Positions 6,269 to 9,919 are shown, numbered from the stretch's first letter. The stretch: DNA of 64,000 nt from Vicinamibacteria bacterium (GCA_963422395.1 OY729431.1:692680-756679), one strand, 5' to 3'. Program-made: numbers and translations. The notes: generated from the sequence alone by a model not told the origin.

Positions 6269-9200
6269 TCACGGGTCGGGTTCCGCGGCTTCCCGGAGGG
6301 CGCCGGCGGAGAGGGAGAACGCCTCGGAGGAATGGTGCGAGGTGAGCAGGCGAAAGGGGTTCTGGATCCGCTTCAGCTCGGGTCTCGGACGGCCGCAGTC
6401 GAACACCACATACAGCCAGTAGGCCTCGCCGAAGTGGCACGCCTGCTTCCACTCGTTCGGCTCGATCGAGACGCCGCCGCGCCCCGCCCGGCCCTTGACC
6501 TCGATGCGCCGCTGCTCTCCGTCGGGGCGGATCGAGAGGAGATCGAACCCGGGCCAGTCGGCGAGCCCGGCAGCCCGCGCCTTCTCGGGCTTCGAAACGT
6601 CTTGCAAGCGGCCGTGGTGTGCCCGCTCCCACTCCGAGGCGATGCGAACTGCCATCGCCTCCACGGTCTCGTCGTAGCCTTCGAGTTCGTCGGAATCGGG
6701 GGCGGGGATGACGAGTGCGTGGGCCAGCAGCAGGACCTCGCCGGGATGGATCCGGTCCGGCGCCTCCCGAAGATTTTGGAGTTCGCTCGTCCGCCGGGAA
6801 GCGAGCGCCGCCTGCTCTTCGCGCACCTCCCGCATCGCCTCCTCGTCGGGCGCTGCCCGATCGGAAGACTGGTTGGAAAGCCGATCGGGAAGCCGATCGC
6901 GCAGGCGTTTGCGCTGTTCGGCGAGCTCCGCAGCGCGCAGATCGAATCCGGCGGTCAGCTGCCGGCGCCGCTCCTCGCTGCTCCGGCGGGCTCTTGCGCG
7001 ATGTTCCCCGACCAGCCGTTCGGCGATCTCCTGTGCCTGGGCGGCGGCTTCGGCGCGCCTTCCGAGAGAGCGGCTCGCCAGCGGGATCGCCCCCGGCACC
7101 GCATTCGGCGCACCGTGGAGCAACAGCATCCGTTCGACCGGTTCTTCGATGAGCATTCCGTCTTCTTCCTGGCGGAGTCCGATCAGCCGGCGTTCGATGA
7201 TCCGGCGCGCCGGAGAGGGCACACGAAGACTGCCGTGGGGGAGGAGTGCCGGTGGAGCCGCTGCCGGCGGCGGAACCTCCGCTTCGACGCCAACGAGGCC
7301 CAGGTGGAAGAAGTACGGCCCGTCGGCGCGGGGGTCGGCGAAGATCGCGCCGCGCTGGGCATCCCGGGAGAAGAGGTTTCGGACGGCTTCGGAAAGCGCG
7401 TCGAAGACCGGCTCTCCGGGATGGAGCCATACCCCGGGTTTTCCCGGTGCGATCCGTCTCGCCGAGAGCAGCTCCCGATCTTCCGGGGCGAGGGTGTCGA
7501 GTGCCGGGAGGAGGGGGTCGAGCGCCCCCGCTCGCCCGGGCAGCAGCGTGAAGAACCCGTCGAGGTCCCCGCTGATGGTCAAACCCAGGAGCGGTGCGCT
7601 CCTTTCGACGAACCGGAGCACATACGCAGGGAGAAGGCGCAGGGATTCCTCGCGATCCCGTTCGCGGTTCAGCCGGGTGAGACGGGCGGCGACTTCTCCT
7701 GGCTTTTCGGGTCCATCGCCGTAGCGCCGGGTCTCCTCGTCTCGGATTTTGCGCACCCGTTCGCTGCGGAGCGCATCCTTCAGTTCTGCCAGATCGGCCC
7801 GCTCGGCGTCGGTCTTCTCTTCACCGCCTTCCCAAAGTGTCGAGCGCAGGTATTTCTTCAGCGAGCGGCCCTCGAACAGCCGGCCGATGACATCGAAGAC
7901 CTTGTCCGATTCGAGCTCTTCCCGGATGGCGTCGAGTTTTTCCAGCAGCACGGCCAGCACCCGCCCCTCGCGGGTGTCTTTCGAGATGAGGTTGACGATG
8001 CGGACCTCGTGCTTTTGTCCGTAGCGGTGGATGCGTCCCATTCGCTGCTCGAGTCGGGCCGGGTTCCAGGGGATGTCGTAGTTCACCATCAGCCGACAGA
8101 ACTGGAGGTTGATCCCTTCGCCGGCGGCGTCGGTCGCGATCAGGAACCGGGCTCCGGCGGGATCGCGGAACCGCTCGACCTGTTCCTCGCGTTCGGGCCA
8201 GTCCATGCCGCCGTGGATCTCGGCCACCTGCCCCGAGTAACCGAGCCCTTCGAGCCGCCGGATCAGGGAATCCACGGTGTCTCGGTGCTCGCTGAAGATC
8301 AGCCACTTCTCCCGGGGCTCGACTTCGGCGCCGCCCTCGAGAACTTCGCGTAGCCGTTGGAACTTGGACTCCTGCCCGGACTCGTGGAGACGCCGCGCCC
8401 GGTCGCGCAGGCCTTCGAGCACGCCGATTTCGCGCTGGACTTCCTCTTCGGTCACCACTGCGAGCGCGCCGAGCATCTCGTCTTCCCAGGTTTCGATCTC
8501 CTCCCGATCTCGATTCGTGGGGCTTCCCGCGTCGTCATCGGCAGCCCGGATCTCGAAGAGATCGCCCTTGGCTGCCTTTCGGTCCAGTAGCAGTGTCTCG
8601 GGCTCGATCCCATCGCTCCGGATGTCCTGGACGACCTGCCGGAGTTTTTCGATGCGGCGTTCGAACGACCGCAACAGCGCCCAGGTGGAGCTGGCGAGTC
8701 GGCGCTGGAAGACGGTCAGGGCCAGCTCGACCGCCGGCCGGTTCTTCAGTCGGTTCGTCAGCGCCCGGCCGTAGAACTCGTGGAGATATTCGGTCGTCCT
8801 CTCGTAGAGGTCGCGCTCGCCGTCCGGGCCTTCGCTCAGCTGGTAGCTGAAGGTGTTGCAGCGGCGCGGCAGGAAGAGGGGTGCGCCGTCGAAGCCCACC
8901 AGCTCTTCCTTCGTCCGGCGGAGAAAGTGGCGGCGGCGCACGGCCGGCGACAGCCTCGTCACTGCCGCACCCGTCGAGAACGATTGCGGATCGAGCAGCC
9001 GCCAGAGAAAGTGGTAGGGCCGCTCCCGACCCATGTGCGGGGTGGCGGTGAGCAGCAGGAGGTGCCGGGCCGACCAGCCGAGCCCCGAGAACGGGCCGCT
9101 CGGCGCGGCGCCCCCGGAAAGCGCCTCGGCGAGCTGGTAGCGCTTCGTCTTGTCCACCCGGTCCCCTTCTCCGCCGACGCTCAGCTTGTGCGCCTCGTCG

Positions 9201-9919
9201 AAGACCACCAGGTCGTAGGGAGCGACCTCGGGGTCGCCGAGCTCCTGAAAAGTTCGCTCCTGCCGCAGGGTGTCCAGCGACACGATCTGCTGGTCTTCGA
9301 GAAACGGATTCCCGGATTCCGTCCGCCTGCGCCCAAGGATTCCGAACTGCAAGTGGAAGAGGGTCCGCAGCTCGCGCTCCCAGTTCCCGACGAGCCCGGC
9401 CGGGGGCACGATGAGCACCCTTCGGATGCGACGGCGCGAGAGAAGCTCACGCACCAGGAGGCCGGTCATGATCGTTTTGCCGGCTCCGGCGTCGTCAGCG
9501 AGCAGGAACCGCAGCGGGTCCTGCGCCAGCATCCTTTCGTATACCGCGATCCGCTGGTGCGGCAATGGATCGATCCGTGCCGTCTCGATGGCGAAGGCGG
9601 GGTTGAACTCGTGGCCGTGAGCGAGGCAAAGCGCTTCGGTGAATGCGGAAACGCCGCGCGGATCCCCGGCGAAGTCCAGCGGGGGAGGGCCGGGTTCCAC
9701 CGGAGGCGCGGGGCTGGAGGCGGCGACCGCGGCTTCGAGCTCGGCGAGCCGGCGAAGCGAGCCCGGTTGCGGTGCTGCTTTTCCTGCCTCCCAGCGGTGG
9801 ATGGTGATCAGGGTTACCCCGAGTTCCTCGGCGAGCCGGCCCTGGCTGAAACCGAGAGCTCGCCGGACCTCGTGCACCCTCCCGCCGAAGTCGTCACCGT
9901 CGGAGCTCGCGGAAGGCAT
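6269..9919 (-). CDS. Multidomain SNF2/SF2 helicase with N-terminal XRE-type HTH and C-terminal DUF3883-like (restriction-endonuclease-fold) domain
   Basis: 1216 aa. N-terminal HTH: LGFSQGRLAEELGVTLITIHRWEAGKAAP. SNF2 helicase motifs: DDAGAGKT, DEAHKL, LLLTATP, a HELICc block (IATDAAGEGINLQ...NYDIPWNPARLEQRMGRIHRYGQ). C-terminal ...DLLSIRPDGEQRRIEVKGRAGRGGVSIEPNEWKQACHFGEAYWLYVV matches DUF3883. Preceded by an AT-rich promoter region. Confidence 0.7.
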   Translation of the reverse strand: MPSASSDGDDFGGRVHEVRRALGFSQGRLAEELGVTLITIHRWEAGKAAPQPGSLRRLAELEAAVAASSPAPPVEPGPPPLDFAGDPRGVSAFTEALCLAHGHEFNPAFAIETARIDPLPHQRIAVYERMLAQDPLRFLLADDAGAGKTIMTGLLVRELLSRRRIRRVLIVPPAGLVGNWERELRTLFHLQFGILGRRRTESGNPFLEDQQIVSLDTLRQERTFQELGDPEVAPYDLVVFDEAHKLSVGGEGDRVDKTKRYQLAEALSGGAAPSGPFSGLGWSARHLLLLTATPHMGRERPYHFLWRLLDPQSFSTGAAVTRLSPAVRRRHFLRRTKEELVGFDGAPLFLPRRCNTFSYQLSEGPDGERDLYERTTEYLHEFYGRALTNRLKNRPAVELALTVFQRRLASSTWALLRSFERRIEKLRQVVQDIRSDGIEPETLLLDRKAAKGDLFEIRAADDDAGSPTNRDREEIETWEDEMLGALAVVTEEEVQREIGVLEGLRDRARRLHESGQESKFQRLREVLEGGAEVEPREKWLIFSEHRDTVDSLIRRLEGLGYSGQVAEIHGGMDWPEREEQVERFRDPAGARFLIATDAAGEGINLQFCRLMVNYDIPWNPARLEQRMGRIHRYGQKHEVRIVNLISKDTREGRVLAVLLEKLDAIREELESDKVFDVIGRLFEGRSLKKYLRSTLWEGGEEKTDAERADLAELKDALRSERVRKIRDEETRRYGDGPEKPGEVAARLTRLNRERDREESLRLLPAYVLRFVERSAPLLGLTISGDLDGFFTLLPGRAGALDPLLPALDTLAPEDRELLSARRIAPGKPGVWLHPGEPVFDALSEAVRNLFSRDAQRGAIFADPRADGPYFFHLGLVGVEAEVPPPAAAPPALLPHGSLRVPSPARRIIERRLIGLRQEEDGMLIEEPVERMLLLHGAPNAVPGAIPLASRSLGRRAEAAAQAQEIAERLVGEHRARARRSSEERRRQLTAGFDLRAAELAEQRKRLRDRLPDRLSNQSSDRAAPDEEAMREVREEQAALASRRTSELQNLREAPDRIHPGEVLLLAHALVIPAPDSDELEGYDETVEAMAVRIASEWERAHHGRLQDVSKPEKARAAGLADWPGFDLLSIRPDGEQRRIEVKGRAGRGGVSIEPNEWKQACHFGEAYWLYVVFDCGRPRPELKRIQNPFRLLTSHHSSEAFSLSAGALREAAEPDP

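Follow-up and report, generated by a model that had tools for sequence, protein, structure and literature searches.

We analysed a 64,000-nucleotide stretch of DNA from a Vicinamibacteria bacterium (GCA_963422395.1 OY729431.1:692680-756679; hereafter the window), in which a gene on the minus strand, at 6269..9919, encodes a protein of 1216 amino acids (aa) that we assign to HmaA, which is the helicase in a defence system named Hma (helicase, methylase, ATPase). The hmaA coding sequence starts with an ATG, and its GC content by codon position (GC3 0.81, GC2 0.47) fits a real gene of a high-GC genome. The gene is preceded by an AT-rich promoter region and marks the border of a block that is poorer in GC (57 to 67% in positions 1-10000 of the window, against about 70% elsewhere). 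Immediately downstream, and in the same orientation, comes a pair of genes resembling those of the Gabija system, followed by three further genes; upstream of the start codon stands an 18-bp palindrome, which is a candidate operator. Two questions are treated below: to which defence system this set of genes belongs, and what the DNA-binding domain at the N terminus of the HmaA protein may do.

Domains and family of the 1216-aa protein

An earlier reading of the same DNA (the original prediction) had described the protein as a fusion of an XRE-type helix-turn-helix (HTH), an SNF2 helicase and a DUF3883-like domain, and this description is borne out by the open reading frame and its Pfam matches, all of which exceed the gathering cut-offs. 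HTH_31 (residues 10-61, E=1.6e-8) and HTH_3 (E=3.7e-8) match the N terminus, SNF2-rel_dom, ResIII and DEAD match residues 117-295, Helicase_C matches residues 519-634 (E=9e-26), and NOV_C, the domain formerly called DUF3883, matches residues 1122-1177 (E=4.6e-14). In an AlphaFold model of residues 1-300, built on 39 aligned sequences, the first part of the chain folds into four helices (11-22, 26-33, 37-44 and 52-67, with a predicted local distance difference test score, pLDDT, of 85-90), and these are predicted to be an XRE-type HTH (residues 10-67, 9719..9892, on the minus strand like all features of the protein). Three of its residues, R42, W43 and E44, are nearly invariant among homologues. 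A disordered, proline-rich linker (68-86) follows in the model, and then the first helicase lobe.

The two lobes of the SNF2 ATPase occupy residues 117-315 (8975..9571) and 519-690 (7850..8365). The Walker A sequence DDAGAGKT, which the original prediction had picked out, is indeed present at residues 142-149, with motif I at G145-T149; motif II, DEAH, corresponds to residues 241-244 and motif VI, QRMGRIHRYGQ, to residues 625-635. In a 20-sequence alignment, motifs I (GxGKT), II (DEAH) and VI (RxxR) are intact and invariant among homologues, as is the whole QRMGRIHRYGQ stretch of the second lobe.

The model of residues 690-1216 (mean pLDDT 81) falls into three parts. A middle region of mixed alpha/beta secondary structure (residues ~780-930, 7130..7582; residues 91-240 of the modelled fragment) is followed by a long, coiled-coil-like helical hairpin (residues ~946-1052, 6764..7084; fragment residues 257-319 and 337-363), the helices of which have pLDDT values mostly above 90. 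The third part, found at the C terminus, is the NOV_C domain (residues ~1086-1216, 6272..6664), which has an alpha-beta-beta-beta-alpha-beta topology at a pLDDT of 90-97. This domain has the PD-(D/E)xK restriction-endonuclease fold, as had been supposed in the original prediction. D1126, E1140, K1142, E1153 and E1156 are invariant both in the 20-sequence alignment and in the alignment of 39 sequences, which are close HTH-bearing homologues; D1126, E1140, K1142 and E1153/E1156 are thus candidate catalytic residues. By sequence, the closest solved structure is that of RapA (E=7e-27), and the same comparison found no HmaA among solved structures.

The PADLOC profile for HmaA, PDLC00659, matches the protein with E=1e-163 (544.8 bits), and the alignment runs nearly end to end, from residue 82 to residue 1189 against positions 69-1147 of the 1176 of the profile. 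The runner-up family, DrmD (E=3e-100), is matched by the helicase core alone; together with BrxHI/II (E=1.5e-94), its match spans residues ~105-690. DrmD, BrxH, DpdE, ZorD and RapA were rejected as families, their matches being confined to the ATPase core, as is the PADLOC match to DrmA. Among the NCBIfam models, DrmD (NF038317) scored 324 bits, on the helicase core alone, against an equivalog cut-off of 610, RapA (NF003426) scored 152 bits against an equivalog cut-off of 576, and DpdE and ZorD remained under their curated cut-offs, DpdE far under. DrmD of DISARM, BrxHII of BREX and RapA do have a homologous helicase core, but neither the NOV_C nuclease nor the XRE HTH. Relatives are numerous: 7979 of the 8000 candidate homologues that were scored had E<=1e-10, and Pfam matches to HTH, SNF2 and NOV_C were found in most of the best 120 candidates. 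The nearest homologue retrieved is 70% identical to the HmaA of the window; when one genome per species was scanned, no identical locus came up, and the best one was 68% identical.

The Hma system, with HmaA as its helicase, was predicted by Payne et al. 2021 (PMC8565338). Liu et al. 2024 (PMC11232893) reported that HmaA of Halomonas meridiana alone protects Escherichia coli against T4, with a reduction of about 100-fold, that protection requires motif VI and the D/E/K/E nuclease residues of NOV_C, and that NOV_C, taken by itself, nicks supercoiled plasmid in a Mn2+-dependent manner. In a further paper (NAR 2026, PMC12839542), the Hma system is reclassified as Type-1 BREX-related (BR), a restriction-modification-like system, and the BR helicase is described as a Swi2/Snf2 core with an active PD-(D/E)xK restriction endonuclease (REase) at the C terminus. 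The H. meridiana protein is of similar size (~1183 aa, against 1216 aa here) and shares the SNF2, Helicase_C and NOV_C domains, and motifs I, II and VI as well as the D...ExK...E nuclease motif of the HmaA family are conserved in the window. As in the Type-1 BR helicases, a Swi2/Snf2 core comes first here and a PD-(D/E)xK REase domain last, with alpha/beta structure modelled in between; in RapA-like BR helicases, the part of the chain that separates the core from the active REase contains degenerate REase-like and alpha+beta domains (PMC12839542), to which the modelled, beta-rich region at residues ~780-930 may correspond.

Judged by its sequence, then, the 1216-aa protein is HmaA, the predicted helicase-nuclease effector of the Hma, or Type-1 BREX-related, system. 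Given the profile match and the Hma literature, the domain combination, which the original prediction had been unable to place in any characterised defence family, turns out to be already named and partly characterised (PDLC00659; PMC8565338, PMC11232893, PMC12839542). The suggestion of an independent single-protein system survives in part: a homologue does defend alone against T4 (PMC11232893), but it belongs to a family that already bears the name HmaA.

The palindrome in the putative hmaA promoter

The palindrome, TTTTATCAAATGATAAAT (9964..9981, minus strand), ends 44 nucleotides (nt) upstream of the ATG of hmaA and is a candidate operator for the HTH of HmaA. The core of it, TATCRNNTGATA, turns up nowhere else in the 64 kb of the window, against a chance expectation of 0.01 occurrences. 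The scan of one genome per species gave 80 related loci from many phyla (79 distinct ones), and across 1.66 Mb of related loci this core is present unaltered in 18 copies, 17 in addition to the window's own, all of them 55-167 nt upstream of the start of the hmaA match. Variants of the consensus ATATAnCAnnTGnTATAT, scored with a position-weight matrix, stand upstream of most HTH-bearing hmaA genes. An XRE HTH is encoded in 73 of the 82 family loci examined; a matrix score of at least 10 is reached in 55 of these 73, where the background rate is 0.007 hits per 300 nt, and all 73 score higher than all 9 loci devoid of the HTH (Mann-Whitney p=6e-7, and p=9e-7 when the 18 training loci are left aside).

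The position of the palindrome relative to promoter elements recurs as well. In many loci a TTGACA-like -35 element is found 4-5 nt upstream of it, and its right half-site, TGnTATAT, is built like an extended -10. Transposed to the window, the geometry of these other loci gives an inferred core promoter at 9963..9991 (minus strand), made of TTTTCA at 9986-9991, a 17-nt spacer, TG at 9970-9971 and TAAATA at 9963-9968, such that the extended -10 is supplied by the palindrome's right half. With TATACT (9930-9935) as an alternative -10, the mRNA would be all but leaderless. The sequence of the recognition helix varies with the class of operator: SFATVN is found with TA[AG]CA, SFPT.N and SFVTLN with ATATATC, and T[PL][LI]T[VI]H with cTATCA. 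Such a pairing of helix and operator can also be produced by shared ancestry.

Because the palindrome overlaps the inferred promoter and tracks the presence of the HTH, autorepression of hmaA comes to mind: this pattern suggests, as its simplest reading, that the HTH, in dimeric form, binds the palindrome and represses the promoter of its own gene. The original prediction had seen in the HTH the sensing part of an enzyme that senses, translocates and cuts; the tracking of HTH and palindrome points to autoregulation instead. In two loci from Binatia whose HmaA has no HTH, a conserved gene of ~490 aa abuts hmaA on its upstream side (L005 8508-9983, L008 8532-10043), and this gene might replace the missing regulatory module.

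A regulatory device of this type is familiar from the controller (C) proteins of restriction-modification systems, small XRE-type HTH autoregulators with a palindromic operator over their own promoter, which control a potentially self-toxic nuclease encoded downstream. By analogy, the HTH, the palindromic operator overlapping its own promoter and the control of a nuclease would all have their counterparts at hmaA. The C protein is a separate polypeptide, whereas the HTH of HmaA is fused to the helicase-nuclease, and to our knowledge the consensus ATATAnCAnnTGnTATAT corresponds to no known C-box.

Published descriptions of HmaA comprise three domains, to which the window adds the XRE HTH and a palindrome that looks cognate to it. 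In PMC11232893 neither of the words HTH and XRE is used, and no promoter element is mentioned either; XRE is absent from PMC12839542, and neither paper mentions the HTH-palindrome feature, so that the HTH-operator circuit seems unreported. As the HTH is found in 73 of the 82 family loci, the difference probably lies in the published descriptions and not in biology.

The probable Hma operon and its cargo

The ATG of the gajA-like gene (position 6248) lies exactly 20 nt past the stop codon of hmaA and on the same strand, in agreement with the original prediction, which had placed a Gabija-like pair at that distance. The gajA-like gene (4527..6248, minus strand) encodes a 573-aa OLD-family ABC ATPase with a TOPRIM domain (PADLOC GajA, E=1e-154; Pfam AAA_15, DUF2813 and OLD-like_TOPRIM), and the gajB-like gene (2620..4530, minus strand), the start of which overlaps the gajA stop in an ATGA at 4530, encodes a 636-aa UvrD-type superfamily 1 helicase (PADLOC GajB, E=1e-186; Pfam UvrD-helicase and UvrD_C). 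Both PADLOC profiles are matched over the full length of the genes. Next, still on the minus strand, are a DUF262/GmrSD_N gene at 1441..2529 (Pfam GmrSD_N; NsnA-like, E=2e-60, and PD-T4-2_A-like, E=6e-50, in PADLOC) and a gene at 917..1444 for a 175-aa RiboL-PSP HEPN protein (HEPN_RiboL-PSP, 28.0 bits, just below the cut-off of 28.4). Translationally coupled by an ATGA overlap at 1441-1444, these two genes resemble a further nested defence module, again of two genes. The last gene, at 1..903 (minus strand), encodes a KAP-family P-loop NTPase (Pfam KAP_NTPase, E=2e-35) and is cut by the left edge of the window. With neighbours that match defence profiles, hmaA does head a co-directional defence island, as had been proposed. 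No tRNA gene was found in the window; since no tRNA flanks the island, no integration site is defined.

The rest of the Hma operon can be followed in the related loci, in which the presence of HmaB, HmaC and GajAB was assessed by tblastn of reference proteins. In the two closest loci with retrievable contigs, L001 (68% identical, from Candidatus Marinacidobacterium) and L002 (70%), the gene order is HTH-HmaA, GajA, GajB, variable genes, DUF1156 (HmaB) and DUF499 (HmaC). In L002, a KAP NTPase gene stands between gajB and hmaB, directly before hmaB, and the KAP protein of the window is 53% identical to it. More generally, hmaB follows hmaA at a distance of 0-9 kb in all loci with enough downstream DNA, with the single exception of L072, and HmaC comes after HmaB. 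Because of the KAP synteny with L002, the hmaB and hmaC genes of the window are expected just past position 1, and probably lie just beyond its left edge.

The slot between hmaA and hmaB is filled differently from one locus to the next. Elsewhere it contains AAA_21 ABC ATPases, NYN RNases, Schlafen/AlbA_2 proteins, NACHT NTPases, zeta-toxin-like kinases, retropepsin-like proteins, or a HATPase_c_3 protein accompanied by a C5-methylase, and in L005, L008 and L009 homologues of the DUF262 gene (52-58% identical) directly follow hmaA. Insertions of this sort have been described before: 66.5% of hma loci were reported to carry them, Septu, PARIS and Ppl being among the inserts (PMC11232893), and in at least 1242 taxa OLD-ABC/TOPRIM modules such as Gabija and PARIS were found to be embedded in BREX and BR loci (PMC12839542). 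In the same manner, Septu (ptuAB) is inserted before hmaB and hmaC in H. meridiana, and here the insert would be Gabija; the Type-1 BR system is likewise a tripartite one, with a DUF499 ATPase and an N6-methylase, into which OLD-ABC/TOPRIM modules are embedded. On our reading, gajA and gajB, the DUF262 and HEPN genes, and the KAP NTPase are independent defence modules that would occupy this variable slot, and they are probably co-transcribed with hmaA.

Some observations on the related loci and on the remainder of the window may be of use in themselves. A protein of ~577 aa without a Pfam match (cluster c10) recurs in four Hma loci, among them L018, where its gene (9823-11556) has hmaA on one side and hmaB on the other; we note this gene as a candidate for uncharacterised defence cargo. 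The related hmaA loci are spread patchily over many phyla, and many of the closest ones (L003-L082) come from lineages, such as Poribacteria, Entotheonella, Binatia, Latescibacterota, Marinacidobacterium and Palauibacter, which we take to be represented by marine or sponge-associated metagenome-assembled genomes; the window probably comes from a similar source. Directly upstream of hmaA in the window, and divergent from it, are a Phd/YefM-like antitoxin gene (10189-10503, plus strand) and a gene for a PIN-domain VapC toxin (10538-10927, plus strand), followed by a second Phd/YefM-like reading frame (11013-11390, plus strand) with no obvious toxin partner. The genes at 11446-13971 and 14070-16511 (plus strand, ~810-840 aa) are paralogues that fall in one BLAST cluster, the first of them matching DUF5916, and a third reading frame at 16408-19032 (plus strand) is of similar size; the region 11446-19032 has no defence context. 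The far end, between 55000 and 64000, stands out by an unusually strong positive GC skew (0.16-0.26 in 2-kb windows) together with a GC content that goes down to 64-66%, the skew being near zero in the rest of the window.

Readings of the locus

The following scheme can be proposed for the locus. By inference from its homologue, HmaA would be an ATP-driven translocase on double-stranded DNA that delivers a nickase to phage DNA and thereby limits replication. HmaB, a DUF1156 N6-methylase, would presumably mark self DNA, and HmaC, a DUF499 ATPase, would presumably sense or load, both being encoded beyond the window. As first gene of a co-directional defence operon, hmaA would be co-transcribed with the cargo. 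An XRE HTH dimer may then bind the 18-bp palindrome over the spacer and the extended -10, and HmaA would in this way repress its own transcription, and probably also that of the cargo behind it, much as C proteins limit the expression of the nuclease in restriction-modification systems.

Gabija (GajAB) is a self-contained two-gene system, sufficient for defence alone. Could HmaA and GajAB nevertheless constitute a single three-component system, either a Gabija with an SNF2-nuclease subunit or an Hma that needs Gabija? With a gap of 20 nt between hmaA and gajA on the same strand, and no terminator in between, the arrangement in the window lends itself to this reading. The order HmaA-GajA-GajB recurs, furthermore, in four of the 79 distinct loci (L001, which is the same as L026, L002, L036 and L048), and in three of the four the identity of GajAB tracks that of HmaA (67% for GajA/GajB against 69% for HmaA in L002, 47% against 47-48% in L036 and L048), from which it follows that the arrangement can be co-inherited in the long term. 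In PMC12839542, embedded OLD-ABC modules are argued to be selected 'backup effectors' and not random neighbours. However, the other 75 distinct loci are without GajAB, and they include many an HmaA closer to that of the window (50-58%) than those of L036 and L048. A reverse check was made on 80 metagenome loci with GajA relatives (22-45% identical): GajB nearly always comes after GajA, but HmaA is upstream of GajA in none of the ~31 loci that offer at least 3.7 kb of upstream DNA. To this must be added the many unrelated modules that occupy the same slot after hmaA, and the report that HmaA is sufficient for defence on its own (PMC11232893). Gabija is thus a rare neighbour of HmaA, and HmaA no regular neighbour of Gabija, even though the two lie side by side in one operon here. 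Since co-occurrence is rare both ways, and since unrelated genes are found in the same slot, the Gabija pair is, on this comparison of loci, cargo nested in the Hma operon, and HmaA no missing Gabija subunit; the original prediction of an unrecognised third Gabija component does not hold, and we consider a three-component system very unlikely. Some functional interplay between HmaA and GajAB, along the lines of the 'backup effector' idea of PMC12839542, is possible.

The palindrome can also be looked at differently, if the HTH is supposed to be a target sensor that recognizes a sequence or structure of invading DNA and loads the translocase-nuclease onto it, the site in the promoter being incidental or secondary. 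The covalent attachment of the HTH to motor and nuclease gives this idea some appeal, as any bound site would recruit the enzyme, and an AT-rich palindrome could well be commoner in AT-rich phage genomes than in a host of 70% GC. Yet in 1.66 Mb of host DNA the exact motif is found at the hmaA promoter only, where its fixed position over the -10 and the spacer is the signature of an operator, and a sensor of foreign DNA is not expected to keep its cognate site in its own promoter across phyla. We regard a sensor role as very unlikely. As for the possibility that the protein is not involved in defence at all, and is a housekeeping, RapA-like SNF2 protein associated with RNA polymerase, or a transcription regulator, it could draw on RapA being the closest solved structure and figuring among the NCBIfam matches, and on the presence of an HTH. 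But the score for the RapA model stays below its cut-off, RapA has no nuclease domain with conserved catalytic residues, the operon is made up of defence genes, and the related loci are patchy over many phyla and accompanied by DUF1156 and DUF499; we give this last possibility hardly any credence.

Several points weigh against the reading of the locus as an Hma operon with an autorepressed hmaA. Neither hmaB nor hmaC is visible, the window being cut off in the KAP gene, ~5.4 kb downstream of hmaA, and about 15-20% of hmaA genes are reported to be without hmaB or hmaC. Type-1 BR helicases carry an N-terminal TUDOR domain (PMC12839542), whereas the model of residues 1-300 has in its place the four-helix XRE HTH, the disordered linker and then only ~34 residues ahead of lobe 1, without any beta-rich domain or strand before that lobe. 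A scan of 9850-10550 for consensus promoters and terminators found nothing, the inferred promoter of the window being a weak match; the promoter assignment therefore rests on the geometry shared with other loci. Lastly, the link between HTH and palindrome is correlative, and few independent evolutionary events may lie behind the 9 HTH-less loci and the classes of operator.

Taking all this into account, the locus is best explained jointly by an hmaA gene of an Hma operon, nested cargo and autorepression through the HTH, a reading to which we would give a probability of roughly 0.8. We lean, if only by a little, towards a broader proposal, namely that HTH and palindrome would together make up a built-in, C-protein-like autorepression switch, present across many phyla, which sets the dose of the helicase-nuclease and gates the cargo.

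For annotation, the consequence is that the gene should be labelled hmaA, and the island an Hma operon in which Gabija and DUF262-HEPN modules are nested, and where no three-part Gabija is to be sought. The gain beyond annotation is modest, the HTH-operator circuit being the sole element worth following up: a conserved palindrome provides a testable regulatory hypothesis for a widespread and little-studied defence system. If true, the HTH adds a domain that is missing from published descriptions of the HmaA family, and autorepression would explain both how a potentially self-damaging helicase-nuclease is restrained and how the cargo modules of an insertion hotspot come to be co-regulated.

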